Shown: positions 808 to 44,084 of the stretch, piece by piece
How positions within the stretch are numbered: position 1 is the stretch's first letter
Layout: each line of letters begins with the position of its first letter
Source of the DNA: Schmidtea nova
Taxonomy: Eukaryota
Reading direction: 5' to 3'
NCBI GenBank assembly: GCA_044892505.1
Contig: CM097882.1
Coordinates: forward strand, 293,632,001-293,696,000
DNA length: 64,000 nucleotides
Notes under the pieces: generated by a model
Seen by the model: the letters and a program-made list of their open reading frames with translations, nothing else
Told to the model about the DNA's origin: nothing
Database searches by the model: none
Position numbers and translations under genes: made by a program

Positions 808-1866
808 CAAGGATTCGGAGCGGAGCGGAGCCCGGAGCCCTGTGCGGCTCCGGAGCGGATAATTTGCTTGGAGTAAAGAGCGGAGCAGTGAGTAAAAAAA
901 TTAGAAGGAGCGGAGCGGTTCCGCTCCGCGGTTCCGTTCCGCTCCACATTTTTTTAAAATTTCTTTTCGAAAACGAATGTAGTGTCAGTTTTGGAAAATT
1001 AGTGTAAGTTTTGTTATTTAGGTATCAATTCAAAATTTTTCTTGCCGGGAAAATGAAAAGTTTGCATGTTGGGTCCAAGGTATATAGATTGTTGGGATCT
1101 AAGTTTGTGTTGATGTGTCAAATAACAGCTAATTATAATCTGAAAATTTAAATGTTTTGATTTATATATATTTTGTTTAATTCAGTTTGAGAATTTTAAA
1201 TTATTTACTGTTTGTCTTTTTAAATAATAATATCCTTGGGTAAGTAAGTTTATCATTATCCTCTTGATATTTAGTTTCATTATTCTTCACTTTTCTTTAT
1301 AGGAAAAATATATGAATAATATAAAACATAAAAGTTATTGATACATATATATTTACATGAATTTATATGTAATGTGTAATGTGAGACACAAAGTTTAAAT
1401 AAATTAAAATTAAGAAGTTAAAATAAAGGTAAATTTAAATTAGTTATTTATTTATACTTTTACTATATTTTCATAAGTTTTTATATTTTGTTGGGCCCGC
1501 CAAATCACCTAAAAACACAATAAAACGAACAAAAGCATGAAACAATAAAGAAATAATAAAAATAAAAATAGCAAGAAAAACAAATTAAAAATAACAATAA
1601 AACGACAAATAATAATTGATAAATTTTCAGTAAAAGGAAATTTTGAAAATAAACCGGTAAACAACCGCAAAAGGGGGCCTGAAATAAGAAAAAATAGAAT
1701 TAAATAAAATAATAGTACAAATAATTAATTAATTACTTGGAAAATCAGGACCACCCAGCGAGAAACCGGAAAAGGAAACAAAATAATGTTTAGATTAGAA
1801 TAAAATAATAAAAATACTTTGATGGACGGCCTGATCCTGATTGGTCAATCCAACCAGACGGATCAG

Positions 1867-1874
1867 TATAAATA
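1867..1874 (+). promoter_or_regulatory. Candidate LTR TATA box (TATAAATA), with a candidate splice donor at 2002 (GAA|GTAATT)
   Basis: The same TATAAATA lies ~400 nt into the A LTR (38890-38897, minus), followed ~100 nt later by AG|GTAAAT (38789). Confidence 0.55.
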
Positions 1875-2995
1875 CCGATCCAAAAATCACAGACAGAGAC
1901 GTTTTACATTTTCACTCACAATCAAGACTAAACTTTGATTTGAGTAATAATTTTTGAAAGAACCGAACTTCATACAAGGAACCACACATTCAAGTACGGA
2001 AGTAATTTTTTTATGTTATCTTATATGATGTACCATGATTTTTATTTAATTAAAAGTTTATATGTAAACGTTATTTTATTTTTTCATTGATTATTTTTAT
2101 TGACACTTTAATGCATATAGCTATACTTCCTATGCTGCTCACGCGGCGAGGGAGTCCGAGTCGTCGTCGTGGGGCCTCAGGGTCTCACATGGCGGTTCAA
2201 CCTTTTTATTGTTTCTGGTTTTCATATTTAATTTGGTAGTTGAAATAATTAAATTACATCATTCAAATTTAACTAGATATTTATCAGCGAGATTAGAGAA
2301 TTTTAATGCTTATTTAGTCGAGTAAAATTTTCAGTCACAGAATATCGATAATGCGAATACGTCCAGACAGTTTTCTGGCGATAAGTAAAAAGTCATCATT
2401 TAGTTGCACAGAGGACGAGTGTCGAGGGCTAAATAGGGAGAGTAGCTGGGTAATGGGAGACACCCCAGGGTAGGGTGTATTCAGCATCATAACGCATAGA
2501 AAAATGAGCCTAATTTGAACCTCCAGCATGGAGAATAATGATAAATAAATAAAACTAATTCATATAATTTCGATAAAATGGAAAATTTCAATGAAGGTTA
2601 AAGTCCGATTTCATTCGGAATTAGTATCTCACCTACAGCGTCACCCGATCGATAAATACCGATCGCATTGGAATGCGACGGAGAATCCACATCAAGTCAT
2701 GAAACTCTAAAAATAGACCGATCGTCGTACATGGCGCGGATATCTAATTTATCTTCCGATCGCTGTATATAGCGCGGAGAATTTTCGAATAAATTTTATA
2801 TTTTCCTTACTGCTGTACATAGCACAGGATTAATTATGAACTCTTTATTCCGACCATGGTAGATCACGGCGGAGAGAAAGAAAATTTACCTTATTATTTT
2901 TAAGTAACTTTTGTGATTATATACAGTATAATTAAATTATCAACGAATTTTCCCCCCTTAACTCAGATATTTTATATCCAATAAATGTAATATAG

Positions 2996-3475
2996 ATGTC
3001 GACAGCTGAACTTATAAATCGATTGACTCAACTACGGAATATGGAACAAGTGAATCTGCGAAATGGAAATATCTCGCAGCTCAAGGATCTACCAGCATCG
3101 ATATTGCGGACCCTCAACTGCCAAATGTATAAGTGGCGACAGGGGTTTGGCCGAAAATGCCCGTTCTCGATATGGACAGGAGGGCACGACCAAATATTCT
3201 ATCGAGGAGGACCGAACTGGCCGATTTCTCAAAGGCCGTACTCGAACAAATTTGGCCGCCTTGTCGTACTGATCAAGGACACCGATGGACGGACAAGCCG
3301 TGTAATTTATTGGGGGCATATCCCTCGTCGGGAACTATGCCAACTAGGCCTACACGAATTCCTGCCACGAAAACCGTTCGGCAAGGAGTGCCAGAAAGGA
3401 CAACCCTCATTCTCTTGGGCTCGTCTCCGTCAGAAACCGATTAACAGCGAACTGCATAGCCTGTTTCGGAGATAA
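2996..3475 (+). CDS. LTR-encoded ORF1, unknown function (159 aa)
   Basis: ATG directly after a TAG acceptor-like site. Segment IKDTDGRTSRVIYWGHIPRRELCQLG aligns with FLDEQNRPRWLLSTGMMSGRALHQLG in the A LTR ORF 37174-37806. Confidence 0.6.
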   Translation: MSTAELINRLTQLRNMEQVNLRNGNISQLKDLPASILRTLNCQMYKWRQGFGRKCPFSIWTGGHDQIFYRGGPNWPISQRPYSNKFGRLVVLIKDTDGRTSRVIYWGHIPRRELCQLGLHEFLPRKPFGKECQKGQPSFSWARLRQKPINSELHSLFRR

Positions 3476-3661
3476 GAACTGATTGTCAAATCTTTAAAAG
3501 TTGTGATTAAATATTAATATTCAGCAGTGTTTTTGTTTTGTTGTTTGGAGTTTTAGTATTGTGTTTTTAATAATTCATATTCGTGACCTAATAATCCTAT
3601 GATCAGATTTTAAATTTCATATAATTAAATCATAGAGTAAATATCCTAAATAAATTATAGA

Positions 3662-4258
3662 ATGAATCCCGATTTGATGCAGAGAGAATTAGAAAAGATG
3701 TGGCGGATTCGGAGGGCCCAGGACAAGGAAGTGGGTCTCCTCAAGGCACAATTGATCAAAGCAGAGGCACAGATTGCATATTTGCGCAAAAGCTGGTTTG
3801 CTCCGGCCCGAATGAAGGAGCAAATCAGTAAAACCGAGCGCGCCCAACAGACTGCAGCCGAGTACCAAATGGAATGGGAGGCTACAAAGATAGAACTCCG
3901 AAAATGCCTCCATTCCGTAACTGCCTCATATATTGAGAGGGAGCTCAGAGAGCAAATCCGTCCAGTTACGTACCAAGCTTGGACATCAGAGAAGAAGACT
4001 TTGAATTCCATTGGTACGGATGTCGCAGATCTAATCGAAAATCGGAATGAGACAGCTCCTGCAGTAAATTCAACCACCTCATCGGTAAATGCGCACCAGA
4101 AACGCAAGCGCATTGGGCAGAAACGGCGGAGACAGAGAAAATTATTTGCCCAGCAATTACAAAGCCAAGTCGATGGTCTACATCAGATGACTGAGGAGGC
4201 ATTATTGACAGAGATTTTTCCTCCGGCGGGAGTTTTTACCGAACTCATTAAAAATTAA
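3662..4258 (+). CDS. LTR-encoded ORF2, coiled-coil plus basic NLS-like motif (198 aa)
   Basis: Homologous to A LTR ORF 36422-36985 (WFAPARMK/WFNPERVK; KRKRIGQKRRRQR/KRRNRLGAKKRRERR). Confidence 0.75.
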   Translation: MNPDLMQRELEKMWRIRRAQDKEVGLLKAQLIKAEAQIAYLRKSWFAPARMKEQISKTERAQQTAAEYQMEWEATKIELRKCLHSVTASYIERELREQIRPVTYQAWTSEKKTLNSIGTDVADLIENRNETAPAVNSTTSSVNAHQKRKRIGQKRRRQRKLFAQQLQSQVDGLHQMTEEALLTEIFPPAGVFTELIKN

Positions 4259-4498
4259 ATAAATTGTTGTATTGGCTTAAGAATTTTATCGTTCATTTAA
4301 ATTGATTTAATTAGCTTTACCAATGATTAGGTAAAGATAGAACAAAAGTATAAATTCATTTTACAAAATATCGAATAGAGATAATTAAATAATTAAGCGA
4401 GCATTCGTTGAAACACTTCTCGCAGACTGAGCAATAATAAAATTAAATTTTCTGAAAGATTAACGCGGAATACATAAGTAGATGATTAAAGCATAAGT

Positions 4499-4640
4499 CC
4501 TTCTAACGGCAGCGATGAACCCGTGAACATAAATGGGGAGTAGTACTAGCGATAGTGCTCACCTGCCCATCATTGTTCAACCACCCTGCGCATCACCAAC
4601 TTGATTATATAGGGAAATAATCAAGGGCGCTTGAGTGTAG
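4499..4640 (+). other. Conserved structured RNA element near the LTR 3' end (U5-like)
   Basis: Blocks CCTTCTA(A/T)CGG, G(A/G)ACCC and GCTCAC, a GNRA hairpin and an AA-bulged hairpin with a TAGGGA loop recur with compensatory changes at 36127-36257(-) and 55565-55697(-), and partly at 55331-55460(+). Confidence 0.65.
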
Positions 4641-4732
4641 AATTGCAATTTTATGCATGATCATGGATGGGGGATCCCTAGTCATTGTTAGAGCATTTTT
4701 CATCTAACCCCTCCATGAACCCAGCATAAATT

Positions 4733-4750
4733 TGGGGGCTCAGCCGGGAT
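4733..4750 (+). other. Primer-binding site, tRNA-Pro type
   Basis: TGGGGGCTCAGCCGGGAT versus the canonical Pro PBS TGGGGGCTCGTCCGGGAT; 6-nt TAAATT spacer after the LTR. Confidence 0.85.
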
Positions 4751-5067: not shown

Positions 5068-5529
5068 ATGGAGGAAAAACTGAAAGAAATTGAAGAATTT
5101 CTCAACACAGAAAGCGAAACATTAGAAACGATTGGCAAGAAAATAAACCGATTTAGAGAGACTGAATTTCAGGAACCCACAACACAGACTGAAGAGACGG
5201 ATGAGTTAATAAAGATAACAGAAAGAACAGGTAAAATCGACATAAAGACCCGCTACAAATGGTACAGAGCACGATTAGAAAATGCAGAACTAAACATTAA
5301 GTGCAGGCAAATAGAACAACGATTAACCCCAACATACAATCGATGGAGGGCGCAGGGGGTAGAAGCAGCGAAAAAATACCGACAGTGCTATATATGTGAG
5401 GATAGGGAGATACAAATTATGTTTTTACCTTGCGGACATTTTCGTTTTTGTAAAATATGTGCCAGCAAGCGCGACCTATGTCCTATGTGCAACCTGATGA
5501 TAGACGATAAAATTATTGTATATTTATAG
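5068..5529 (+). CDS. Leader ORF with C-terminal C3HC4 RING of IAP-like type (153 aa)
   Basis: CYICEDREIQIMFLPCGHFRFCKICASKRDLCPMC...KIIVYL at the extreme C-terminus. No BIR domain seen. Homologue in A at 35025-35483. Confidence 0.85.
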   Translation: MEEKLKEIEEFLNTESETLETIGKKINRFRETEFQEPTTQTEETDELIKITERTGKIDIKTRYKWYRARLENAELNIKCRQIEQRLTPTYNRWRAQGVEAAKKYRQCYICEDREIQIMFLPCGHFRFCKICASKRDLCPMCNLMIDDKIIVYL

Positions 5530-6005
5530 TAAATAAAATTTGAATGGAATTTTATTGATTTATTAATAATGAAATCATGGGTACAATTGTAATATATAAA
5601 TAATTTTTGAGCTACTACAAAGTAGTCCGATAAGAATCCATTGGGAGGTACCGATTGATCAACCTAGTCAGGGTGTATAGAAAGGGGCCCATCGCAAATG
5701 TTGGAAAGTTTTTGTGATGTGATTGATCACCACATCCTGCATTAATGGACCAACGCGATCTTTTTGTATATTTTGGTTGGGGAGAGAGATAGGGAAATCT
5801 TGATGGAGTAAAGCGCGCATAAGAAAAATAAATAAAAAGTTGAAGCAGACTGATCAGAATTTAGTTAGGATAGAATAGAGAGATAAATGACATTTTTGAA
5901 AGAATAGAAAGGTGCATAGTCAGCTCGCATAGAAGTAGTTATAACTCAGCTGAGAAATTTTAATCGCTAGCGAAGTAGGGAATTGTGATTAACCGGTTAA
6001 GTAAA

Positions 6006-6240
6006 GTTAGGAGATTTGTCCCTTGAAACAAAGGGTTAGGAGATTTGTCCCTTGAAACAAAGGGTTAGGAGATTTGTCCCTTGAAACAAAGGGTTATGAG
6101 ATTTGTCCCTTGAAACAAAGGGTTAGGAGATTTGTCCCTTGAAACAAAGGGTTATGAGATTTGTCCCTTGAAACAAAGGGTTATGAGATTTGTCCCTTGA
6201 AACAAAGGGTTATTAGCGGTTTGTCCCTTGAAAAAAAGGG
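6006..6240 (+). repeat. Tandem array, 29-bp unit x8 (GTTAGGAGATTTGTCCCTTGAAACAAAGG)
   Basis: Read directly; each unit contains a CCCTT-GAAACA-AAGGG hairpin. Confidence 0.95.
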
Positions 6241-6293
6241 TTGAGGCCAATGAGCCTTATTGAATGACCTAGCTAGGCGTTATGGAGAGATTA

Positions 6294-6630
6294 AACTGAG
6301 GCCAATAGAGCCATTTGAGAGATTAAATTGAGGCCAATAGAGCCATTTGAGAGATTAAATTGAGGCCAAGAGAGCCATTTGAGAGATTAAATTGAGGCCA
6401 ATAGAGCCATTTGAGAGATTAAATTGAGGCCAAGAGAGCCATTTGAGAGATTAAATTGAGGCCAATAGAGCCATTTGAGAGATTAAATTGAGGCCAATAG
6501 AGCCATTTGAGAGATTAAATTGAGGCCAATAGAGCCATTTGAGAGATTAAATTGAGGCCAATAGAGCCATTTGAGAGATTAAATTGAGGCCAATAGAGCC
6601 ATGGGAGATATAAAATTGAGGCCAGAAGAG
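6294..6630 (+). repeat. Tandem array, 32-bp unit x~11 (AAATTGAGGCCAATAGAGCCATTTGAGAGATT)
   Basis: GAGGCCAA recurs every 32 nt from 6298 to 6618. Confidence 0.95.
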
Positions 6631-7245
6631 CCATAGTGAATTATAGAGATATCCGGATAAATAGTAACAGGGGGAATATAGACCCATAGTGTAATCGTCG
6701 ACGAGATTTAGAGTAGTGCGCACTAGTAGTTAAGAGAATGCGAGTAAAGCTGATTATGCAACCTTAAGTAAAGCATGCAAGGAGAATAGTAAAAATTTGG
6801 GCTGACCGGAGCAACCGGCAGAATGAGTAAAACGATTGCTAACAGGGAATAATGAGTAGAGATGATAAAATAATGATAAACGAGTCAGAAAGACTCAGGG
6901 AATTAGAGCGCTCGAGCGACCAATAATTTGGGAAACTGTGGGAAAAGTAATCGATTTGATAAAACATAGATAATTATTACGACGTAAATAGATAATTGTG
7001 ACCAGTCTATAGATAATTTAAATAGACTAAAAATAAAGGGGAATCTGGGAATTGGGAGATAATGAAAACCCAGTAATAAGTAATCCCGAAAGAAAGGGAA
7101 TAAAAGCGCGACGATAACAATAATGTATCGTTGAGGACCTTTGTATTTTAGATATACAAATCAATCAAAGCAATCAATCAAACAAGAAGAATCAGAACAC
7201 GATAATAGATAGGACAAGAAAATTGATAATATAAAAGTAATCCAG

Positions 7246-24314: not shown

Positions 24315-24671
24315 ATGACCGAACAGGACGAAACAACTGAAATAACTATGGCTATGAGATGGAAGGCACAATGTGATTTATTAGTACGAACAGTCAACTC
24401 ATTACAGAACCAATTAGCGGAAAGACAAATGTTATTATCAGAAAGTTATAACAATTGTTTCGAACAATTACACAGAATAGAGGAACAACAAAGAGCGATA
24501 ACTGAACTCACCAGAGAAAATCAAACGATAAACAACACCAATCAAAGACAAGCAATAGAAATAAACCATTTAACACGAGGAGAAAGAGAAGGATCCGAAG
24601 AAGGATGGATGAGTTGGGTAATAAATAGATTAAACAACGAAGCGGAACCAGATTCAACGAATGAGCCATAG
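24315..24671 (+). CDS. Accessory coiled-coil ORF (118 aa), unknown function
   Basis: ATG 3 nt after TTTAG; heptad-rich; same codon style as the polyprotein. Confidence 0.7.
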   Translation: MTEQDETTEITMAMRWKAQCDLLVRTVNSLQNQLAERQMLLSESYNNCFEQLHRIEEQQRAITELTRENQTINNTNQRQAIEINHLTRGEREGSEEGWMSWVINRLNNEAEPDSTNEP

Positions 24672-24763
24672 ATAAATAAAGCGGAAAATTGTAAATATGT
24701 AAAAATAAAAACAAGAAAAACCAAAAATAAATGACAAGTCGAATGTATATATTATTGTAGAAA

Positions 24764-26140
24764 ATGGACAGAGAAGAACGAATAATCGAAATTTTGAGAC
24801 TAGAAAACAGAAAATGGAGTAAGAGGCTCACATGCGGGAAGTGTAACAATTTATTACGAGAACCCAGACAAACGATATGTGGATGTAGAATATGTACAAA
24901 ATGTATACAAGAATTGGATGCAACAGGAATAACAACATGCCCAGAATGTAAAGAAGGAGGAATAGTGTTGGACGAAACCAGAACGGACAAAGCAACCCAA
25001 AGAGAAATTATGAGCACCACAACGGAGTGCGTAAATACACCTTGTACATGGCAAGGACAAATAAGTAATCTGGAAAACCATATGGAAAAATGCGAGGAAA
25101 AGAGAGCCGAATGCGAGAAATGCCAACAGACAATAACTCTAAAGAAGAGAGAACAACACAAGGAAGAATGTAAAGAAGAAGAAATCGCATGCGAGTATTG
25201 TGAAGCCCGAGAAACAAGGAGAAAAATCGAAGAAGAACACTTGAATATAACAGAGGAGAAAGTATGCGGACAATATGTAAGTAAATGTCCAAACAATTGT
25301 GAAATAACAGAAGAAATAAAATTACATGAACATTGGAAACTATGTACCGAAAGGCCAAGAGAATGCCCATATAACAAGCATGGATGCAAGGAAAAGCGGA
25401 CGCGAAAAACAATGCAACAACATCTAGAAGAAGCAGCACTAACGCATGTGGAAATGACAAACGAAACGACTAAAGAAACGGAACGGACAATTCAGAAATT
25501 AGAAAAAGAAGTAGAATCACATAAAATAATGATGAGTTTACTACTAGAAACAAGAGAGCAGTTTGAACTAACTCGCGAAAGAATGGAAAAGAAAATAATA
25601 GCCATAGAAGAATTAGGAAAAGGAATGAAAATACAATATAATCAATTAATACGAGAAATTGACGAAAGAATGGACTTACCAATCGCACCTTACCTATGGA
25701 AAGTAACAGATTTCAGAGACAAATTAGCAGAAGCCAGAAATATGACGAAAACAGCAGTAATAAGCCCACCATTTTATTTATGGAAAAACGGGGTTAAAAT
25801 AAGATTGAAAGTATACCCAAATGGAGACGGAAGAGGACAAGGAACACACGTGTCAATATTCTTCTCACTATGTAAAGGAGAATACGATGACCTAATAGAA
25901 TGGCCCTTGAAAATAGGAGTCATTATAAGAATCAAAAGTACGGGAGAACCAGTAGAAAAGTTCTTTGAAACAGACAAACATTCGAGTACGAGCGAAAAGC
26001 CAACGACAGAATGCGGACTAGCAGCAGGAGAACCAATGTTTATAAGGAAAGAAAACCTATGGGAGCAACTATATGCAGACACGCTATACATAGAGATGGA
26101 GAGGCATGAGAAAGCAGACAGAAAAGGATGGTTGGCGTAA
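24764..26140 (+). CDS. Full-length intronless TRAF-family protein (RING, TRAF zinc fingers, coiled coil, MATH)
   Basis: CGKCNNLLREPRQTICGCRICTKC..CPEC; CPYNKHGC..MQQHLEE; YLWKVTDF..SPPFY..LKVYPNGDGRGQGTHVSIFFSLCKGEYDDLIEWP. Confidence 0.95.
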   Translation: MDREERIIEILRLENRKWSKRLTCGKCNNLLREPRQTICGCRICTKCIQELDATGITTCPECKEGGIVLDETRTDKATQREIMSTTTECVNTPCTWQGQISNLENHMEKCEEKRAECEKCQQTITLKKREQHKEECKEEEIACEYCEARETRRKIEEEHLNITEEKVCGQYVSKCPNNCEITEEIKLHEHWKLCTERPRECPYNKHGCKEKRTRKTMQQHLEEAALTHVEMTNETTKETERTIQKLEKEVESHKIMMSLLLETREQFELTRERMEKKIIAIEELGKGMKIQYNQLIREIDERMDLPIAPYLWKVTDFRDKLAEARNMTKTAVISPPFYLWKNGVKIRLKVYPNGDGRGQGTHVSIFFSLCKGEYDDLIEWPLKIGVIIRIKSTGEPVEKFFETDKHSSTSEKPTTECGLAAGEPMFIRKENLWEQLYADTLYIEMERHEKADRKGWLA

Positions 26141-26253: not shown

Positions 26254-27315
26254 ATGGGAAATATAGAAGTAACCTTACAAGAAGTAACAGTACATCAAGA
26301 CGAAATGATCAGAAATCACATGGAGCGGATTGGGATATGGATTCATGCCTATTATCGAAAACAGGAGGAATTGGAAAGACAAACCCAAGCACTAAGAGAA
26401 GCCGAGAAAACGAATCAAAGAAGTCGAGAAAAAATAGAAGAAGTCTACAAACTGCTAAGGCAACAAAATGAATACTACAAAGAGATGATGAAAGAGCGAC
26501 GAGAGGATAGAGATAGACAACAGATAAAAACCGACCATAAGATTCAGTCAATCACAGAACAAGCAAGATATTGGAAGAAAGAGGCAAAAGACTCTTACAA
26601 GGAAGCAAGGGAGATAATAGAACGAACAGCGTACAGCGATGATTGGAAACTGTTTAAAGAGATCGATGAATTAAAAGAGGAATTAGGGCAAAAGATCAGT
26701 CAAGAAGCGTCAAATAAAGTATGGAGTAAGAAAAGACAACAATTTATCAGAGAACAAGCCAAGAAAATAAAAGAATTAACTTATCAAGTACAAAGAATGG
26801 GAGAAGATTTAGCCAATCAAGAACAATTAAAAGGTATGCTGACCGGAATGTGGAATCACAAGGAAGAAAACATGAAAAGAGACATAAATGGATATCAAGG
26901 AGTGATCACCCAGAAGAAAATAGAATTAAAAAGAACTAAAGAAAGAATGGAAGAAACGAGGCAGAATTATGAAGAGAACATAACAAATTTGACAAAAGAA
27001 AACGAAGAACTGAGAAAGAAGTTGGCAGAAAAACCAACACCAATAAAAGAAACAAGTATCACAGCAGCAGTGACCGAAATGATGGAGAAGGAAGAGAGAG
27101 AGAGAAAATTGGCAGAACTAGAAAAACAAATTGAAACCCTAACAGAACAGGCGAACTATCTGGAATACTTATTAGATGAAGAGATCCAGATATCCCACAC
27201 ATACCGAGAAGAAGTCGAAATGTGGAGGAGCACGGTAATATGGATGCCACTCCCCATAAATCAGGTGGAACCTCAAGACGAAGGTTTTTACGAACCCAAC
27301 GAAACCCTTGTATAA
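26254..27315 (+). CDS. Accessory long coiled-coil ORF (353 aa), unknown function
   Basis: ATG after TATAG|AA; charged helical heptads throughout. Confidence 0.75.
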   Translation: MGNIEVTLQEVTVHQDEMIRNHMERIGIWIHAYYRKQEELERQTQALREAEKTNQRSREKIEEVYKLLRQQNEYYKEMMKERREDRDRQQIKTDHKIQSITEQARYWKKEAKDSYKEAREIIERTAYSDDWKLFKEIDELKEELGQKISQEASNKVWSKKRQQFIREQAKKIKELTYQVQRMGEDLANQEQLKGMLTGMWNHKEENMKRDINGYQGVITQKKIELKRTKERMEETRQNYEENITNLTKENEELRKKLAEKPTPIKETSITAAVTEMMEKEERERKLAELEKQIETLTEQANYLEYLLDEEIQISHTYREEVEMWRSTVIWMPLPINQVEPQDEGFYEPNETLV

Positions 27316-27390: not shown

Positions 27391-27960
27391 ATGAGAAAGC
27401 TCGCAATAGCAACACTCCTATGGTTAACAACCATTACCCTACAGAGAGAAGATCTACAACTAACCGAAACCCAATTACGAGTTCTACCCGACAAAACCTA
27501 TCAGAAAGTAGACAGCCTAATCGAAGAAGTAATTAAAGAAATCAACGAATTCCGACAGAAATTCCCCCACAATCAAGATCGTCAAATCCAACAAATCTTC
27601 GATAATCAACAACTGAAACTAGAAGAAACCCGAAAAATCCGGAAAGAAGGTAGAGAACCCATAAAAAGCCTATCCCAAGCTGAAATAGAATATCAAGAGA
27701 AATGGATCATAGCAATCATCATAATCCTAGCAGTCAGCACAACTATCATCGCAATCACAATCCTGCTTGCCTCATATAGAATAAAAATCCTAAAACAAAA
27801 GCAGAAAATCTACAACCAAACCTCCAGACGAGATAACCGAGCTCAAAGACGAATAAGGAGCCATCTCAACCATATTCAAACCCACTACGAGCTACAAATG
27901 ATCAACGAGAGGACCCGAACTCAACCCCAAGCGAGCCAGACGATCGAACAAATTGTATAA
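27391..27960 (+). CDS. Accessory type I membrane protein (signal, helical ectodomain, TM, basic tail)
   Basis: MRKLAIATLLWLTTITLQ signal-like start; TM WIIAIIIILAVSTTIIAITILLASY. The ORF track starts it at GTG 27358. Confidence 0.7.
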   Translation: MRKLAIATLLWLTTITLQREDLQLTETQLRVLPDKTYQKVDSLIEEVIKEINEFRQKFPHNQDRQIQQIFDNQQLKLEETRKIRKEGREPIKSLSQAEIEYQEKWIIAIIIILAVSTTIIAITILLASYRIKILKQKQKIYNQTSRRDNRAQRRIRSHLNHIQTHYELQMINERTRTQPQASQTIEQIV

Positions 27961-28164: not shown

Positions 28165-31100
28165 TGTTGGGCCCGCCAAATCACCTAAAAACACAATAAA
28201 ACGAACAAAAGCATGAAACAATAAAGAAATAATAAAAATAAAAATAGCAAGAAAAACAAATTAAAAATAACAATAAAACGACAAATAATAATTGATAAAT
28301 TTTCAGTAAAAGGAAATTTTGAAAATAAACCGGTAAACAACCGCAAAAGGGGGCCTGAAATAAGAAAAAATAGAATTAAATAAAATAATAGTACAAATAA
28401 TTAATTAATTACTTGGAAAATCAGGACCACCCAGCGAGAAACCGGAAAAGGAAACAAAATAATGTTTAGATTAGAATAAAATAATAAAAATACTTTGATG
28501 GACGGCCTGATCCTGATTGGTCAATCCAACCAGACGGATCAGTATAAATACCGATCCAAAAATCACAGACAGAGACGTTTTACATTTTCACTCACAATCA
28601 AGACTAAACTTTGATTTGAGTAATAATTTTTGAAAGAACCGAACTTCATACAAGGAACCACACATTCAAGTACGGAAGTAATTTTTTTATGTTATCTTAT
28701 ATGATGTACCCATGATTTTTATTTAATTAAAAGTTTATATGTAAACGTTATTTTATTTTTTCATTGATTATTTTTATTGACACTTTAATGCATATAGCTA
28801 TACTTCCTATGCTGCTCACGCGGCGAGGGAGTCCGAGTCGTCGTCGTGGGGCCTCAGGGTCTCACATGGCGGTTCAACCTTTTTATTGTTTCTGGTTTTC
28901 ATATTTAATTTGGTAGTTGAAATAATTAAATTACATCATTCAAATTTAACTAGATATTTATCAGCGAGATTAGAGAATTTTAATGCTTATTTAGTCGAGT
29001 AAAATTTTCAGTCACAGAATATCGATAATGCGAATACGTCCAGACAGTTTTCTGGCGATAAGTAAAAAGTCATCATTTAGTTGCACAGAGGACGAGTGTC
29101 GAGGGCTAAATAGGGAGAGTAGCTGGGTAATGGGAGACACCCCAGGGTAGGGTGTATTCAGCATCATAACGCATAGAAAAATGAGCCTAATTTGAACCTC
29201 CAGCATGGAGAATAATGATAAATAAATAAAACTAATTCATATAATTTCGATAAAATGGAAAATTTCAATGAAGGTTAAAGTCCGATTTCATTCGGAATTA
29301 GTATCTCACCTACAGCGTCACCCGATCGATAAATACCGATCGCATTGGAATGCGACGGAGAATCCACATCAAGTCATGAAACTCTAAAAATAGACCGATC
29401 GTCGTACATGGCGCGGATATCTAATTTATCTTCCGATCGCTGTATATAGCGCGGAGAATTTTCGAATAAATTTTATATTTTCCTGACTGCTGTACATAGC
29501 ACAGGATTAATTATGAACTCTTTATTCCGACCATGGTAGATCACGGCGGAGAGAAAGAAAATTTACCTTATTATTTTTAAGTAACTTTTGTGATTATATA
29601 CAGTATAATTAAATTATCAACGAATTTTCCCCCCTTAACTCAGATATTTTATATCCAATAAATGTAATATAGATGTCGACAGCTGAACTTATAAATCGAT
29701 TGACTCAACTACGGAATATGGAACAAGTGAATCTGCGAAATGGAAATATCTCGCAGCTCAAGGATCTACCAGCATCGATATTGCGGACCCTCAACTGCCA
29801 AATGTATAAGTGGCGACAGGGGTTTGGCCGAAAATGCCCGTTCTCGATATGGACAGGAGGGCACGACCAAATATTCTATCGAGGAGGACCGAACTGGCCG
29901 ATTTCTCAAAGGCCGTACTCGAACAAATTTGGCCGCCTTGTCGTACTGATCAAGGACACCGATGGACGGACAAGCCGTGTAATTTATTGGGGGCATATCC
30001 CTCGTCGGGAACTATGCCAACTAGGCCTACACGAATTCCTGCCACGAAAACCGTTCGGCAAGGAGTGCCAGAAAGGACAACCCTCATTCTCTTGGGCTCG
30101 TCTCCGTCAGAAACCGATTAACAGCGAACTGCATAGCCTGTTTCGGAGATAAGAACTGATTGTCAAATCTTTAAAAGTTGTGATTAAATATTAATATTCA
30201 GCAGTGTTTTTGTTTTGTTGTTTGGAGTTTTAGTATTGTGTTTTTAATAATTCATATTCGTGACCTAATAATCCTATGATCAGATTTTAAATTTCATATA
30301 ATTAAATCATAGAGTAAATATCCTAAATAAATTATAGAATGAATCCCGATTTGATGCAGAGAGAATTAGAAAAGATGTGGCGGATTCGGAGGGCCCAGGA
30401 CAAGGAAGTGGGTCTCCTCAAGGCACAATTGATCAAAGCAGAGGCACAGATTGCATATTTGCGCAAAAGCTGGTTTGCTCCGGCCCGAATGAAGGAGCAA
30501 ATCAGTAAAACCGAGCGCGCCCAACAGACTGCAGCCGAGTACCAAATGGAATGGGAGGCTACAAAGATAGAACTCCGAAAATGCCTCCATTCCGTAACTG
30601 CCTCATATATTGAGAGGGAGCTCAGAGAGCAAATCCGTCCAGTTACGTACCAAGCTTGGACATCAGAGAAGAAGACTGTGAATTCCATTGGTACGGATGT
30701 CGCAGATCTAATCGAAAATCGGAATGAGACAGCTCCTGCAGTAAATTCAACCACCTCATCGGTAAATGCGCACCAGAAACGCAAGCGCATTGGGCAGAAA
30801 CGGCGGAGACAGAGAAAATTATTTGCCCAGCAATTACAAAGCCAAGTCGATGGTCTACATCAGATGACCGAGGAGGCATTATTGACAGAGATTTTTCCTC
30901 CGGCGGGAGTTTTTACCGAACTCATTAAAAATTAAATAAATTGTTGTATTGGCTTAAGAATTTTATCGTTCATTTAAATTGATTTAATTAGCTTTACCAA
31001 TGATTAGGTAAAGATAGAACAAAAGTATAAATTCATTTTACAAAATATCGAATAGAGATAATTAAATAATTAAGCGAGCATTCGTTGAAACACTTCTCGC

Positions 31101-31403
31101 AGACTGAGCAATAATAAAATTAAATTTTCTGAAAGATTAACGCGGAATACATAAGTAGATGATTAAAGCATAAGTCCTTCTAACGGCAGCGATGAACCCG
31201 TGAACATAAATGGGGAGTAGTACTAGCGATAGTGCTCACCTGCCCATCATTGTTCAACCACCCTGCGCATCACCAACTTGATTATATAGGGAAATAATCA
31301 AGGGCGCTTGAGTGTAGAATTGCAATTTTATGCATGATCATGGATGGGGGATCCCTAGTCATTGTTAGAGCATTTTTCATCTAACCCCTCCATGAACCCA
31401 GCA
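28165..31403 (+). repeat. Element B 3' LTR (3239 bp), containing copies of ORF1 (29673-30152) and ORF2 (30339-30935)
   Basis: Direct repeat of 1489-4726, followed by the ATTT TSD. Confidence 0.97.
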
Positions 31404-31428
31404 ATTTAAATAATTTTCTTTACATAGA

Positions 31429-31600
31429 ATGGCAAAGGAAAAGAATCCAGTACGGAATTTTTTTTACTACGAAAAAATAAATGATAAGTTTACGTGCAAG
31501 ATAGATAATTGCAAGCAAGTACATGTGTCGAATTTGGAAAGGCACATACAAAGATTCCATAAAAAAGATTCACCTAAAAAAAACAGAAATTTAAATTTTT
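31429..31600 (+). pseudogene. hAT transposase N-terminal BED zinc-finger remnant
   Basis: NPVRNFFYY..KFTCKIDNCKQVHVSNLERHIQRFH; the rest of the transposase is deleted. Confidence 0.75.
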
Positions 31601-31757
31601 TTTATTTAATAAACCAGAGTGATTTTTTTTTAATGGAGCGGATCGGAGCATGAGCGGAGCGTTTTGTTCTGTTTAAAGGAGCGGAGCGGAGCAGGAGCGC
31701 TTACTAATGGAGCGGTGCTTGGAGCGGAGCGTTTTTAACCACCGCTCCGAATCCCTG

Positions 31758-32451
31758 GTTGGAAGAACTCCTTGATTGCTTCCCACGTTCTGGGTGGATT
31801 ACTTCCCGATCTCTTTTCGATATACAGATCCAATGCGCTATCTTTCAAGTATAGCGGGATTCGATTTGCCAACGTTTCCGGACTCCATCCGCATATATCC
31901 ACAAATATGCCAAATTCCTTCAGAAACGTGTCCAATCTACTGGCGTCTCCACTGAATGGTTCGCCCTTGAATTTTTCTCTTAGATCCTCTCTGTGATCAC
32001 TCATCCCGATTCCACTGTCTTGGAATACTGTACTAGTTTTCTTTGCTTCTATTTCACCACTTGTTTCTGGATTCAACTCCTCTTCTTCGCTACTCCCTGT
32101 TTCGTTATCTCTTGATTCGCTTCTTGTTCTGTTTTCACTGACTAGTTCACCGTCTATCGTTTCTACTTCGTTTCGTACTTCTGGATCCTCTGGGGTTTCT
32201 TCTTGGTTCTCTTTATTACTCGAATTATCGCTGATCTCTGCTGGTTTGTTCTTCTGTTGCGTTGCTTTATTTCCTGATCTTGTCTTCTTCGCTATTTTTC
32301 TTTCTTCTTCTGTTAGGATCGGTTCTGTGTCGCCCTTTTGTTGCGCTAATTTAGCTGCTGCTTTTGCCTTTTTTGCTGCTTTTCTTTCTGCTTCTGTTAG
32401 GACTGGTATTGTACCTGTTCTTGTCTCGCGTTCCGCAATTTTGTCTATTAC
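31758..32451 (-). pseudogene. Element A gag, 5' part
   Basis: DSGIGMSDHREDLREKFKGEPFSGDASRLDTFLKEF..WEAIKEFFQ; rejoins 1-807 in frame if the hAT and one TSD copy are removed. Confidence 0.9.
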
Positions 32452-32959
32452 TCAACTTCTTGTATTCTCAACTGATTTTTCTACTTCGCTTTTGCTTTGC
32501 TTCTTCTTCGATTTGTTTCCTTTGACTGCTCTGACTGCTAGATTGCCTGGAATTGCTTGATTGATTTGTTTCCTTAAAACAAATAATCACTTACACGATA
32601 CGTCCCCGTTATCGTGTTTCTCGTCCCTCTCACGGGTGTAGTCATAATTCATGAAGATCCCCATTTTTCCCATTTCCCTTGATTTTAAGTCTATTTAAAT
32701 TATCTATGCAGTCGTATCAATTATCTATTCTTTATCAAATACACCAATTACTTTTCCCCAGTTTCCCAATTACTTTGTCGCTCAGCGCTCTTATTATCCC
32801 CTTTACTTTTTCTCAGGCTTCTCTGGCTCTGAGTTCGAATTTCCCCTTATTTGTTGACTACTCTGTTTCTCGATTACTCACTTTATTTCCTATTCACACT
32901 ACGTTTACTACTTCGTTTCAATTCTCATCTCTACTCACCTTTAATTCAACGGACGTCTC

Positions 32960-33430
32960 TCGTTGGCCTGCTGGGTTTTCCAGTCAGCGCTTTTAATCTC
33001 ACCTTTTATCTCGAACTCTGTTTCTCTCAATTTCACTCATTATGTCATTAGCCTGCTGGGTTTTCCAGTCAGCGCTTTTAATCTCACCTTTTACTTCTGC
33101 TTCATTATTCTCGACCTCAATTGTCGTTTCATTAGCCTGCTGAGTTTTTCCAGTCGGTGCTCTTATTATCCACCCTTTATCTCTTCACTGTCGACTTTTA
33201 CCTGCTCTTTACTCCGATGATCATCACTTTTGACCTGCTGGGTCTTCCAGTCAGCGTCCTCAATTTTACCACTTTATTATTACTCACTTTTGTTCTCTCG
33301 ATCTTTCCTGATCGTTATCGTTGACCTGCTGGGTTTTCCAGCTAGCGTCTTTACCACTTTACCTGTCTTAACAAACCGGTTTCATTTTATTCCCATCGAA
33401 TCTGCTGGGTTTTCCAGTCAGCACCTTTCA
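32960..33430. repeat. Dispersed ~23-bp repeat CCTGCTGGGTTTTCCAGTCAGC (~6 copies) in the A leader
   Basis: Copies near 32968, 33052, 33137, 33234, 33325 and 33402. Confidence 0.8.
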
Positions 33431-33789
33431 CTTACCCACTTTACTTGGTTACTCCCCTCTGTATGCATACTTTGACGTCGTTAGGCCACATAATCAGCTT
33501 TACTCGCATTTATCAATACCCAGGTGCGCACCTTCAACTCTCTCGTTATTAATTCGGTTTCTTTCAACCTTTATTCCTCATTATTCGCTATTCATTTTCA
33601 CTATTCATCATTTATCCTCATTATCAATTATTCATCTTCATTATCGGTCATTTGTTTCTATTATCCTCTATTCATCTCCCTTATTGCTTGTTGATCTTCA
33701 CTATCCGGATAGTTTTATACTTTATTTAGTCCTCATCTGCCTCACTTCGTCGTCTTTCTCGTGGGCTTTTACTCGATATTTTATTTCGA

Positions 33790-34330
33790 ACGAGAACTAT
33801 GCTCACCGCTGAGAACTATGCTCACTAACGAGAACTATGCTCAATGACGAGAACTATGCTCAATGACGAGAACTATGCTCACTGACGAGAACTATGCTCA
33901 ATGACGAGAACTATGCTCAATGACGAGAACTATGCTCAATGACGAGAACTATGCTCACTGACGAGAACTATGCTCACTGGCAAAACATGGTTGTTATGAG
34001 GGTTTTGCCTACTGATGGAAACTCTTTGCTCCGGGGACTATGTTCCCTGATGAGAACTATGCTCACTGATGGTGACTACAGGAATTATGTTTCCTGATGA
34101 GAACTAAGCTCACTGTGGTGACTATGTTTGTTGATGAGAACTACGCTCACTGATGAGGACTGTGTTCACTGGTCTTGTGTTTATTAATGAGAACTCTGCT
34201 CACTACGAGATTTATATTTACGGACGAGAACTATGCTCACTATGATGTTGTGTTTTATGACGAGACCTATGCTCACTAGGATGTTATTTTTATGACGAGA
34301 CCTATGCTCACTATGAGACCTATGCTCACG
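33790..34330. repeat. Tandem array, 19-bp unit CGAGAACTATGCTCA(A/C)TGA, ~10 adjacent plus degenerate copies
   Basis: Read directly; same leader position as the B arrays. Confidence 0.92.
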
Positions 34331-35024
34331 AACGAAAACTCGAAATATCATCTCTCAGTGGTTGCATGTGTTGCTTCGAGATGTTCCTCTCATTGGTCAT
34401 TTATGCTTCTTCGGAGAATCTATTGTCGCGTTTCGTTAAGTTCTGTCTTTCAAGAACTATGGGCAAATCCTTTCTCTCTAGGACCTCTTTTATTATTTCC
34501 TTTCTTTCAAGGAATTCATTTACCCTCGAGTTTTCCCTTTCACTCGGTTCAGCTATTACACCCCTTTATTCTGTTATCTATTCATCGACTTCTCTACTTG
34601 ATTTTACTTTATGCGAGCTGATTACGTGCCTTTCCTCATATACCACATTTATCCACTTTTATTATTCATTTCCTCACTCTCTTTCTCTACTGATCAGTTC
34701 ATCATCCTATTTTTATAGTTTTTCTGCGCGCGCCTAAACCTCATTGAGTTGTCCTTACCTTTCACCCCAACCAAAATATATAAAAAGATCGCATTGGTCC
34801 ACTGATGCACGATGTGGTGATCAGTCACATCACAAGAGCTTTCCAATATCCGCGATTGGCCCCTTTCTACACATCTCGGGTAAGTTGATCAGTTGGTTCC
34901 CCCCAATGGGTGCTTACCGGACTACTCGTGAGTAGCTCATAATTACTTAGGTCATTTTTACCAAATCATTGTTAAACCGTCATAATTTCAATAACAACTG
35001 TACTTGTTCAAAACTTTATTTCCA

Positions 35025-35483
35025 TTACAAGTACACTGTTACTTTCTCGGATACGGGAAGGTTGCACATAGGACATCGTTCATTTATTTTACATTCATTA
35101 CAGAATCGAAAATGCCCACATGGCAACAACATTATCTGTATCTTATTCATTTCACAGATATAACACGTCAGATACTGTCTCGTATGTTCGGTTGTTGTTC
35201 TTATCCACTCATCGTGTTTTGTTGCTAACTGTTGTTCTAGCCTGTGGCATTCGATATTCATCTCAGGGTTGTTTAATCTTTCTCTGTACCATTGATATCG
35301 TGTTGCGGTATCCACTGTGTTCTTATTCTCGCTTATGTTCATTATCATTTCGGCTCTTTCTGTGTTGTTTGTCGGCTCGTGATATCCTCCTACCTCGAGT
35401 CGTTTTAGCTTTCTCATTATTATCTCCGTTGTCTCGTTGTTTGTTTCGAAAAACGTTTGCATTTCTTTTATTTTGTTCTCCAT
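35025..35483 (-). CDS. Element A leader RING ORF (IAP-like C3HC4)
   Basis: CYICEMNKIQIMLLPCGHFRFCNECKINERCPMC..KVTVYL; clearly homologous to 5068-5529. Confidence 0.85.
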   Translation of the reverse strand: MENKIKEMQTFFETNNETTEIIMRKLKRLEVGGYHEPTNNTERAEMIMNISENKNTVDTATRYQWYRERLNNPEMNIECHRLEQQLATKHDEWIRTTTEHTRQYLTCYICEMNKIQIMLLPCGHFRFCNECKINERCPMCNLPVSEKVTVYL

Positions 35484-36012
35484 CCCCTGAATGAATTCTC
35501 ATTAATTTTTGTTATCGATTTTTATTTATTATTTATTATTCCTATTCTATGGTAGCCCTACTGTTCGCTTTCTGTTGTTCTGTTTCGCGTCACTACTTGC
35601 GTATCCCCCCGTGTTCTTGAATGTCGTCCCGACATGATCATTGTTAGTTGCTCACACTCATATTATTTTCATGCACACTTTTCAGCTTACTTTTACCTTA
35701 CGTCATGCATACTTTTCATCACTTTTCATACTGTTACTCCACATACTATTCCTCATGCTTCATTCAGTCTCATATTTTCACATTCATACTTTCGTTCTCA
35801 TGCATACTTTTATCATGCTCATCATTCTCATTATTTTACACTCATACTTTTATTTATTATTTTTCAACCCGATTCATTCTTGCTTCAGGACCCTCAAACC
35901 CTCTGTTATTTCTTACTTTACTTTTCCTCGCTAAATTCAATTCCATCCCGGTTCAGGCGCTCTAAACTGTCCGCAGATATCGCATTCACTTTTTCCCACA
36001 AAGATCGATTTA

Positions 36013-36030
36013 ATCCCGGCTGAGCCCCCA
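36013..36030 (-). other. Element A PBS (tRNA-Pro type)
   Basis: Identical to the B PBS, including the TAAATT spacer. Confidence 0.85.
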
Positions 36031-36421
36031 AATTTATGCTGGTGTGTTGGTTTGATGGACAACTGAGATCATTAAGATTTTATATGTTAGGGTGATCTCG
36101 CCAACATAAAAACGTTCCCCCGCTGACACCCATGATGTATCCCTAACTACTCATCATGTTGGTGCTGTGTCAACGTTGTGAAATGACAAGGCAGGTGAGC
36201 AACCTTTCGGCTACTATTCCCTTGTTTATTCACGGGTCCACCACTACCGTTAGAAGGTGTCTGTGGATTTCTTTCGGTCCCACTTATGCTCTTTCCTTTT
36301 GTCTTAGGGTAATTTACTTTTTAGATATCTGCAGCTTTAAATGAACCAGGTTTTCATTACTTTTAATTCTCATACCTACTCCAAACAAACAAGACAAGTC
36401 AAATCATTCATTTATATACAT

Positions 36422-36985
36422 TTATTTATAATTCAATAACACTGATGGTCTAATTACATTCAGAAGTTCTTGTTCCGATAGACCACTGAGCAAGTCCACT
36501 TCTATGTCTAGGCGATCGGCATATGCACGTCGCTCTCTCCGCTTTTTCGCCCCGAGGCGATTCCTTCTCTTTGTTCGTTTTGAGCCTGCTGGAGTTCTCG
36601 TTGTCGACTCGATCGTCGTGATCGCGACTGCATCGGTTTCAGTTTGGGTACTCATAGTTACCGATATCGAGTCCACCCATCGGTTAAAAGTGCTCGCTCT
36701 GATCATTGGGCGCAATTGCTCGGTGATAAAGTCTTGGGTCGACACCCTTAAGTAATTTGCCAGCTCTAATTTCAGGGCGGCGACCTCTCTCGCTTGTTCG
36801 TCGACCGTTCGTTCAGCTCTGTATCGGGCTTGCAAGATGGCTTTAACCCTCTCAGGATTAAACCATGTCGTCTTGACCATCTGATGTTCGTCATTCAGCT
36901 GTCTTAAGCGATTTTCCAAAACTCGTGAACGCGCCTTATGTTCCCGCGCCTCTTGTTTATAATCTCGATCTTTGGTTTCGTTCAT
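36422..36985 (-). CDS. Element A LTR ORF2
   Basis: Homologous to 3662-4258; likely ATG at 36985, 2 nt after TTTACAG. Confidence 0.75.
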   Translation of the reverse strand: MNETKDRDYKQEAREHKARSRVLENRLRQLNDEHQMVKTTWFNPERVKAILQARYRAERTVDEQAREVAALKLELANYLRVSTQDFITEQLRPMIRASTFNRWVDSISVTMSTQTETDAVAITTIESTTRTPAGSKRTKRRNRLGAKKRRERRAYADRLDIEVDLLSGLSEQELLNVIRPSVLLNYK

Positions 36986-37173
36986 GTCTGTAAATATAAC
37001 CTCAATTATGATATAGGTCATGTGTCCGGTCTTTCAGTCATCATTTCGTTATTAAACAACTATACCTCATCATCAGGATATTCTCATACGCTCGAAACCA
37101 AAACAAGACCATTCTCACACAAATACATTTATTTTTATATTTACAACAAACATTCTTTCTCGGGCTGTGTCGA

Positions 37174-37806
37174 TCAACTGAATGCCCGCAAATCCTGATC
37201 GGCAGGATTCTCGTCGCGGCGAATTCCGTTTTCCAAATACATCTCTGGGGCTGGGTTCCAACTTAGTTTATCCCGGTAGATAAACACCTCCCAGAGACGA
37301 AGATCCTTGGGCTCCGGATAGGGTTCCGTGGAGACGCTTCCTGGAGCGTTCGAGTAGACGAAGACTTCCCCAGTGTAGCGACACCGAGGCCTGTCTAGCA
37401 GCACGTATCCTAATTGATGTAGAGCCCTTCCCGACATCATTCCAGTACTCAATAACCAACGGGGTCGATTCTGTTCATCGAGGAATTGGTAGAACCATTG
37501 GTCGGTTCTTGGCTCGACAGGATCCGAGGAGGACACCCAATCGGTATCGCCTTCCCACCTCAATTGTATTTTGAAGGCGCAGGCTGGAATATCGGCGGCT
37601 GCACTCATGTAGGTCCTCATCCATCGGCGCAGATGACGGCGCGCTAACTCGAGAATCCGGCGTGGAGCCTCTCTTTCTCCTTGAATTTCAAAATGCGCTT
37701 TGGGTCTGATGATGGAGCGGACGCGCCGTTTTCTCCGAAAGATATACTCTTCCGCCTTGACGGGTAAGGGAACTACCGGGTTCATTAGGTCTCTTTCAGT
37801 TTTCAT
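37174..37806 (-). CDS. Element A LTR ORF1 (210 aa)
   Basis: Same position as B ORF1, with a shared D..(G/N)R....G....R.L.QLG segment. Confidence 0.65.
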   Translation of the reverse strand: MKTERDLMNPVVPLPVKAEEYIFRRKRRVRSIIRPKAHFEIQGEREAPRRILELARRHLRRWMRTYMSAAADIPACAFKIQLRWEGDTDWVSSSDPVEPRTDQWFYQFLDEQNRPRWLLSTGMMSGRALHQLGYVLLDRPRCRYTGEVFVYSNAPGSVSTEPYPEPKDLRLWEVFIYRDKLSWNPAPEMYLENGIRRDENPADQDLRAFS

Positions 37807-40620: not shown

Positions 40621-41129
40621 CTAACCACATTTCCACCTCTGGTCTTCTTTCTACCTGTACACGTACCATCGGATACAATATTTCCTCCTCTAGTAATAGT
40701 TATGGCTAATGCCTTGCCTACTTCAGCAGTAATAGATACTTCGTTATCTCTTTTCAATTTACCAGTTCGAAACGCATCCTCACAATCTTCTGGTAGAACT
40801 CTTATTGTTCTGGGAATGAATTTAGCTTCCAAGAATGCTGAGTAACTACTTGATCCACAATAATATTCGAATTCGGCCCTTTGTAGGCGACATTCTTTTA
40901 TTCTCGTACGATAAAAATCGGTTTCTTGATAAATATGGTATTCAAGCTTTTCCCCTAACTGAACTTTGTCGGGATAAGCTTCGGCACATTCGATTGTGTC
41001 TACTAAAGAATAAATTCCTGCTAGAGTTGGATTCGTACAGTCGTATGCAATTAATGGATTCACTTGCTTGATGATTCCCATCATCATTAACAGTAAGAGC
41101 ATTATGTTTGCCATTCCATAAAAATTCAA
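40620..41129 (-). pseudogene. Element C env N-terminus
   Basis: MANIMLLLLMMMGIIKQVNP|LIAYDCTNPTLAGIYSLVDTIEC..ECRLQRAEFEYYCG..EDCEDAFRTG; aligns with B env; truncated by the Penelope insertion. Confidence 0.85.
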
Positions 41130-43972: not shown

Positions 43973-44084
43973 ATAAGTTAATTCTGAATCTTGACTTACT
44001 AAACAAACGGATCGTTGTTGTCTATTATCGTTACTTTTAACGCTGTTATTATCATTATTATTATTGTTATTATTTAAAGGACAG

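Follow-up and report, generated by a model that had tools for sequence, protein, structure and literature searches.

A full-length, selected TRAF gene in the downstream cassette of a giant Burro-type retroelement of Schmidtea nova

The window analyzed here is a stretch of 64,000 nucleotides from Schmidtea nova (GCA_044892505.1, contig CM097882.1, forward-strand positions 293,632,001 to 293,696,000). It contains a long terminal repeat (LTR) retroelement of 29,915 bp, in which a TRAF gene lies downstream of a giant polyprotein gene. The LTRs are 3.2 kb long and 99.88% identical to each other, with three substitutions and one indel. The polyprotein displays, in order, a gag-like N-terminus with a CCHC knuckle, a fusion glycoprotein (env), protease (PR), reverse transcriptase (RT), RNase H (RH), integrase (IN), ankyrin repeats and C-terminal hydrophobic segments, and is followed by a cassette of four open reading frames (ORFs) in the order ORF118, TRAF, ORF353 and ORF189 (Table 1). 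Among the features expected of a Burro element, a length of ~30 kb, long LTRs with a target-site duplication, and a single ORF of ~5000 amino acids with the gag/env/PR-RT-RH-IN/ankyrin arrangement are present. By its layout and domain order, the element is a young giant gypsy LTR element of the Burro type.

The TRAF ORF is stop-free over 458 amino acids. Pfam places a MATH_2 match at residues 310-446 (E 6e-21) and also recovers TRAF-mep_MATH (1e-19) and zf-TRAF (5e-7), the MATH domain and the TRAF zinc finger being above the cut-offs. None of the Pfam RING families matched the ORF at E 0.01; residues 21-148 match the solved RING-zinc finger structure of TRAF6 (5vo0; E 1e-13), and the N-terminus matches the TRAF2 RING (3knv; E 1e-10). 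The RING ligands are C24, C27, C39, C41, C44, C47, C59 and C62, and five zinc-finger ligand sets extend over residues 89-228. The AlphaFold model (mean predicted local distance difference test score, pLDDT, 86.6; predicted template modelling score, pTM, 0.38) comprises a recognizable RING and fingers, one 78-residue helix at residues 225-302 and a beta-sandwich at 310-447, and its best fold matches in the PDB are TRAF1/3/5/2 domains. The domains of the TRAF2/3/5 type are all found (N-terminal RING, tandem zinc fingers, TRAF-N coiled coil before MATH, C-terminal MATH/TRAF-C), and the product is predicted to be a TRAF2/3-like protein with an all-Cys RING, five zinc fingers, a coiled coil and a MATH domain. 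The initial annotation had described the four parts as intact within the element, and Pfam, the PDB matches and the model confirm this. A cysteine occupies the usual histidine position of the RING in 30/30 element copies checked. Decay of the RING was considered as an explanation and ruled out, because the Cys-for-His variant is shared by all of these copies and by triclad host TRAFs.

Table 1. Features of the Burro-type element in the window.
Feature	Positions	Strand	Evidence
Target-site duplication ATTT, left	1485..1488	+	
5' LTR (TG...CA), with ORFs 2996-3475 and 3662-4258 (no Pfam family)	1489..4726	+	
Primer-binding-site-like sequence	4733..4750	+	
Upstream accessory ORF, 153 aa, helical part and C-terminal RING of the inhibitor-of-apoptosis (IAP) type, no BIR	5068..5529	+	zf-C3HC4_3, E 5e-12
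Tandem repeat arrays in leader, 29- and 32-nt units	5977..6700	+	
Polyprotein, 5488 aa	7723..24189	+	Pfam
Accessory ORF118, coiled-coil-like, 5' of TRAF in all five families	24315..24671	+	
92-nt spacer with TGTAAATA at 24690, AATAAA signals, T-rich tract and acceptor-like TAG at 24758-24760	24672..24763	+	
TRAF gene, full-length, 458 aa	24764..26140	+	Pfam, PDB matches, AlphaFold model
TRAF RING	24833-24949	+	
TRAF zinc fingers, five	25028-25447	+	
TRAF coiled coil	25436-25669	+	
TRAF MATH	25691-26104	+	
Accessory ORF353, long coiled coil, 3' of TRAF in families A-D	26254..27315	+	
Accessory ORF189, hydrophobic N-terminus and one membrane-like segment (by eye)	27391..27960	+	
3' LTR	28165..31403	+	
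Target-site duplication ATTT, right	31404..31407	+	

The gene is carried by family A, to which the element of the window belongs, and by four related, TRAF-bearing families, B to E. A protein search for family A, a sample biased to intact copies, yielded 3822 candidates; the 92 that were scored are all 94-100% identical, and 89 are free of in-frame stops. All TRAF copies fetched lie in an element context (30/30), and an invariant 22-mer marker gave 117 exact matches, the reversed control none. Absence of the TRAF from other copies of the family had been proposed as grounds for dismissing it; among 40 copies selected by integrase DNA, 36 have a same-strand downstream TRAF listed, at 6.8-8.4 kb from the integrase in 33 copies, 4 kb in one and 22-25 kb in two. 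The other 4/40 are without a TRAF among those listed, and the TRAF lists are incomplete.

In the four further families, the TRAF likewise lies behind an ORF118 homologue. Its identity to the family A protein is 77% in family D (26 rows, 2 opened), 52% in family B (76 rows with a 476-amino-acid frame, 7 opened plus one longer stretch), 46% in family C (10 rows, all opened) and 37% in family E (91 rows, of which 12 were fetched and 3 read completely). Through families D, B and C, TRAF identity drops in the same order as polyprotein identity. A TAG stop inside 90/91 family-E matches was examined as a possible break and rejected, as it is the natural gene end in the 12 loci read. Element TRAF copies number at least about 320 over the five families. 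Rather than a passenger, the TRAF is a fixed accessory gene in a clade of Burro-type elements, inherited through at least five families.

Family E carries an ORF with BIR and RING domains, an IAP, directly behind the TRAF (L190:3049-4215; L193), and the single copy read upstream is missing RT, RNase H and integrase; family E may therefore be non-autonomous and yet have retained the survival cargo. One family-B copy (L194:527-4438) has a natural internal deletion that fuses the polyprotein in frame to MATH, which illustrates a way for MATH to enter the polyprotein, as in Burro1.

Selection was evaluated on 30 copies picked by their upstream flank, the window copy included. Two of these contain a stop and one a frameshift, leaving 27 intact, and the variants shared among copies comprise 52 nonsynonymous and 83 synonymous changes (pN/pS 0.16; 0.35 for singletons). 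Between families A and D, the TRAF has a nonsynonymous divergence (dN) of 0.128 and a synonymous divergence (dS) of 0.83, a ratio of 0.155, as given by simple counting estimates on a biased base composition. By region, dN/dS is 0.22 for the RING, 0.15 for the zinc fingers and 0.19 for MATH, dS of the coiled coil being saturated. The same comparison gives 0.15 for ORF118, 0.10 for ORF353, 0.27 for ORF189, 0.07 for env and 0.02 for RNase H-integrase. Ratios of family A to B, C and E (0.16, 0.27 and 0.46) were set aside as unreliable, since synonymous sites are saturated. Purifying selection acts on all four domain regions of the element TRAF, and the neutral evolution that the initial annotation had allowed for as a refutation is contradicted by a dN/dS of ~0.15. 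A passenger that is intact merely through the youth of its insertion would be in keeping with LTRs that differ at 4 places and with similarity-ranked copy sets; it is refuted by a frame kept across near-saturated families, together with the dN/dS of 0.155 and pN/pS of 0.16, and its probability is negligible. The gene is very probably a functional accessory gene; a host origin and a function under selection, as first proposed, have withstood both attempts at refutation.

As a separate observation, MATH (window 25691-26104 versus L139) has a dS of 0.37 between families A and D, compared with 0.9-1.1 in the RING and fingers. Recombination between families or constraint at the RNA level are possible causes.

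The peptide pocket of the MATH domain was compared with the TRAF2 hot spots listed in a section of PMC6125299, a vertebrate pocket that is a weak yardstick for planarian TRAFs, since the serine triad is missing from host triclad TRAFs too. The canonical hot spots for Px(Q/E)E binding are not matched, with F456 replaced by Ser, C469 by Glu and R393 by Lys; the equivalents of Y395, D399, F410 and F447 are retained. Ser410 and Glu423, at the positions of F456 and C469, are fixed in 30/30 copies and common to family D. Among 12 triclad host rows, position 456 is aromatic in 11 and Glu is found at 469 in none, and pocket residues vary among the element families. The altered hot spots lower the claim on the ligand and not that on TRAF membership, given that host triclad TRAFs deviate as well. 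They would suit a dominant-negative decoy that trimerises with host TRAFs or holds their partners, does not engage receptor tails and thereby blocks the signal. Such a decoy is unlikely in view of the four retained positions, of the weak vertebrate yardstick, and of selection on a RING and zinc fingers that a pure decoy would not need. A role as adaptor and ubiquitin ligase (E3) is likelier, because all domains are conserved.

Being located 17 kb behind the first ORF, the TRAF needs a message of its own. Signals that could provide it were examined in one natural copy per family, giving a total of 17 accessory ATGs. A YAG is found 0-8 nt 5' of the ATG at 16/17, and at 14/17 it is accompanied by a T-rich tract. 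The corresponding values for polyprotein ATGs, used as a control, are 104/372 and 10/372, and shuffled leaders reached a maximum of 10/17 and 7/17 in 5000 rounds. The accessory spacers are 75-222 nt long (16 measured), and all 16 contain TGTAHATA no more than 45 nt after the preceding stop; this motif, which we take to be a Pumilio element that also holds the CFIm UGUA motif, is found 0 times in the 16.5 kb of the polyprotein. The acceptor-like TAG of the TRAF, 3 nt before the ATG, is kept in 30/30 copies, and the acceptor and spacer signals persist across families whose synonymous sites are near-saturated. Both intra-LTR ORFs, for which families C and D have homologues, also have an AG right before the ATG.

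The short spacers and the acceptor-like signals before the downstream ORFs are as expected of a spliced-leader operon. Flatworm spliced-leader operons resemble the cassette in their co-oriented genes ~100 bp apart, with an acceptor before each start, and the spacers reported for Macrostomum are about 100 bp (section on operons in PMC8629364); they differ in that the genes here sit inside a retroelement. This organization suggests an operon-like trans- or cis-splicing of the accessory genes, and the element TRAF would probably be expressed from its own spliced mRNA. Four contig runs of unknown kind from one study covered 30/30 bins; among the rows listed, which do not include 900 further loose ends, no joint or loose end fell at the acceptors, and this carries no weight for or against splicing.

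A careful tree of 39 rows unites triclad and element TRAFs in one clade (100/99), within which the five element families and the unnamed protein P0087 group together (96/91), P0105 joining on a long branch. A first tree of 70 rows agreed with this result; rows were later dropped from it for run time, three long-branched ones among them. The presence of Dendrocoelum proteins in both host subgroups is a hint of an old capture. The third-position A/T content is 0.56/0.13 in the element TRAF and 0.50/0.15 in the polyprotein, compared with about 0.3/0.3 in six host TRAFs, and the element TRAF has fully adopted the base composition of the element. A host TRAF of the same genome has 70% identity to Dugesia japonica TRAF2-like A. 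That the element TRAFs group in a single clade within the triclad TRAF radiation points to a single old capture.

Four unnamed database proteins (P0087, P0109, P0105 and P0122) grouped with element TRAFs in the trees, and P0087, P0099 and P0109 have an element-like composition. All five are probably element TRAFs of other planarians.

The initial annotation had deduced a likely capture via RNA from the absence of introns. The TRAF is indeed contained in a single frame; the deduction does not follow from it, as eight host loci (L061, L063, L096, L097, L108, L132, L134 and L173) also have RING to MATH in one open frame, a count to be read with the caution that protein searches favour single-exon genes and that not all host TRAFs are intron-free. 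These eight loci have a host-like composition and no adjacent cassette gene; two of them have no Met before the RING, where a short first exon is possible, and some have scattered Burro remnants at a distance of 5-9 kb. A retrocopy is expected to have lost introns that its parent has, and in the closest host genes no intron interrupts the stretch from RING to MATH, so the intron argument carries no force. RNA-level capture is the default route for LTR elements. The same intron-free host genes could be read in the reverse direction, as triclad TRAF2/3-like genes that arose from an element-borne or retro-processed TRAF, and the approximately unbiased (AU) test does not reject a tree in which the elements are the sister group of all triclad host TRAFs sampled (p 0.37). 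No host row is nested in the element clade, the host genes have neither the element composition nor the cassette, and the all-Cys RING is also found in an intron-bearing subfamily, which makes this direction of transfer very improbable.

That intron-bearing host subfamily is the larger one. At C2:405-455 Mb of G000 (L154-L180), a large tandem cluster of host TRAFs that have a single zinc finger and an intron 5' of MATH probably constitutes the bulk of the host expansion; RING and MATH lie in separate frames in 8/12 loci examined, and the other 4/12 have no RING frame within a 1.5-kb flank. In a MATH-only quick tree, the element clade (98) includes 0/19 host rows, and 11 MATH-exon loci make up a clade of their own (97), from which it follows that the sampled host expansion does not derive from element copies. 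The suggestion that retro-mobilisation fed the TRAF/MATH expansion of the host is therefore not sustained, the expanded subfamily being intron-bearing, tandem and a clade apart. The host expansion itself has already been published (reported in PMC6109357), and counts of MATH transcripts could be inflated by element copies.

These results are best accommodated by the following model. An already intron-poor TRAF2/3-like host gene would have been captured once, long ago. A long element transcript would be cut into single-gene messages by splicing at acceptors that lie 1-6 nt 5' of the accessory ATGs, through spliced-leader trans-splicing as in flatworm operons or through cis-splicing from an upstream donor, and the TRAF would be translated from its own processed mRNA. 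The product would be a trimer that serves as both adaptor and RING E3 and whose peptide pocket has been retuned; it would enter the TRAF-dependent stress, innate and death signalling of the host (TAK1-p38/JNK, TBK1), and, together with the IAP-type cargo of the element, would keep element-expressing cells alive. To this explanation as a whole, comprising an accessory gene, one capture, an own mRNA and a survival adaptor, we assign a probability of roughly 0.6.

The functional part of the model draws on published work. RNA interference (RNAi) against planarian host TRAF is reported to result in cell death (PMC7586133), as is TRAF knockdown to raise it (PMC8807557); traf2-1 damps infection-driven degeneration in a study whose screen implicates TAK1-p38 (PMC4993586); and TBK1 is described as limiting the expression of foreign nucleic acid and inducing TRAF genes (PMC13563047). 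Burro is reported to be silenced by PIWI and, upon derepression, to be found in the intestine (PMC8532177, PMC10558129), and the IAP of Burro1 reportedly protects stem cells against apoptosis (via PMC13465017). From these observations, a pro-survival, immune-damping role may be proposed for the element TRAF, and its chances are slightly better than even. The framing in terms of TNFR, TLR and NF-kB with which the gene was first presented fares less well: PMC13563047 reports no clear planarian homolog of NF-kB or of the known DNA sensors, TLRs among them; a TLR9 homolog is mentioned earlier in that paper. TBK1 and TAK1-p38/JNK are likelier pathways, and the NF-kB reporter assay suggested at the time is a poor test, given the reported lack of a clear NF-kB homolog (PMC13563047).

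The TRAF could instead serve the cycle of the element with little effect on the host, by binding the tails of the element's own membrane proteins (the polyprotein C-terminus, ORF189) or by ubiquitinating particle proteins or a restriction factor. This would agree with a fixed cassette shared with an unknown coiled-coil ORF and a membrane ORF, a pocket that differs among families, and an env-like fusion protein encoded by the element. The TRAF is, however, kept beside the IAP in family E, for which the one copy read upstream has no RT, RNase H or integrase, and we regard a function confined to the element cycle as distinctly improbable.

Several points weigh against the survival-adaptor model. 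The family of the window has no BIR domain, and its BCL2-like region is confirmed by neither sequence nor structure searches: a BH2-like motif was noted by eye at polyprotein residue ~1603, before env, for which PDB sequence search and the ESM Atlas returned nothing usable and a single-sequence model reached a pLDDT of 46. Alternative sister placements of the element clade (AU p 0.28 and 0.37) do not single out a donor subfamily, and the element rows in the tree have a biased composition. The five families are related, so that the 17 ATGs are not independent; the 0-8 nt interval and the T threshold were set after the sequences had been seen; and ORF189 of family A has no YAG. Internal poly(A) signals would clash with the production of full-length genomic RNA. 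The LTR and the leader contain no GT[AG]AGT donor, which weakens the simplest cis-splicing model alone. Finally, similarity ranking of all copy sets favours young, intact copies.

The closest known systems are Burro1-4/GYPSM1 of Schmidtea mediterranea and a Burro-like element of Dugesia tigrina, which share the ~30 kb length, the giant polyprotein, the env between gag and protease, the ankyrin repeats and accessory ORFs (PMC6431247). MATH_TRAF_C, BIR and BCL2-like motifs have been published for Burro; MATH_TRAF_C lies in the polyprotein of Burro1 and in an upstream accessory ORF of D. tigrina, whereas here a whole RING-to-MATH TRAF lies downstream in a four-gene cassette. The Burro section of PMC6431247 names the domain only and does not cover selection, origin or acceptor signals. 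The Burro1 B-IAP is similar in being a captured cell-death regulator on a Burro element with reported stem-cell protection (via PMC13465017), and family E has a BIR and RING ORF; it differs in that the present cargo is a TRAF and that the RING ORF of the window's family has no BIR. Triclad host TRAF2/3-like proteins (Smed-TRAF-2A/B; D. japonica TRAF2-like A, P0010; Dendrocoelum TRAF-2/4/5, P0104, P0014 and P0110) have the same domain order and all-Cys RING and fall in the 100/99 clade; relative to them, the element TRAF has ~30% identity, A-rich codons, an altered pocket and hundreds of mobile copies. Viral TRAFs, such as megalocytivirus ORF111L (PMC3352826) and the TRAF-like proteins of giant viruses, are also host TRAFs on a mobile genome that act on death signalling, but they belong to DNA viruses and have 11-25% identity, and ORF111L is reported to promote apoptosis (PMC3352826).

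What appears to be new is the whole downstream TRAF under selection in five families and the acceptor and spacer design, the MATH/TRAF-C, BIR and BCL2 cargo of Burro being already known. The Burro1 B-IAP is said to be the subject of Lee et al. 2026 in Dev Cell, which possibly already covers the TRAF. No description of a full-length downstream element TRAF, of its selection, single origin or acceptor architecture was found among the titles and abstract beginnings searched; Grohme 2018, Lee 2026 and Jurka 2007 fall outside that scope and may contain some of it. So far, the cargo of Burro has been a list of domain names, one of which (IAP) is reported to support regeneration, and a second cargo that is a whole, selected TRAF through five families is the obvious next gene to test. 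The planarian TRAF expansion splits in two: a host subfamily that is tandem and intron-bearing, and element copies, at least about 320 in number, that can distort transcript counts and mislead the design of RNAi. The conserved layout of acceptors and spacers also offers a cheap and sharp test of how genes behind a 16-kb ORF are expressed in a 30-kb retroelement. A broader proposal, that Burro elements carry a small eukaryotic operon from which host spliced-leader trans-splicing would yield messages for a captured survival module (TRAF and, in one family, IAP), and that several hundred dispersed TRAF copies would join stress, immune or stem-cell signalling, much like what is reported of the Burro1 IAP, is offered tentatively, as an attractive idea with the odds against it.

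Among the remaining features of the element, the primer-binding-site-like sequence is presumably tRNA-Pro-like, and the upstream 153-amino-acid ORF has 40% identity to the RING of the family-E IAP. ORF189 has no Pfam family, and ORF353 matched only unnamed proteins or coiled-coil look-alikes. Rfam gave 0 matches over window positions 1-46000, the tRNA scan gave 0, and there was no match in the phage collection. The insertion site is a short inverted-repeat DNA element (~808-1488 and 31404-31757), which we take to be hAT-like. This element in turn interrupts the gag of a Burro copy of family B (1-807 and 31758-39317, minus strand; 83-96% identical to L147/L150), and the locus is thus a three-level nest of insertions. 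Fragments of a more distant Burro-like element, in which gag (Pfam), an env-like start and, by eye, a BH2-like motif are recognizable, occupy positions 40602-45057 (minus strand). Further along lie a perfect 160-nt inverted repeat with a 4-nt loop (47807-48130), which adjoins a transposase-like ORF (48210-48572), and a host gene for a chaperonin CCT subunit (49056-50405, minus strand; Pfam Cpn60_TCP1) with short introns upstream of the frame. Two further conventional gypsy-like remnants, in opposite orientations, are located at 58286-63196.
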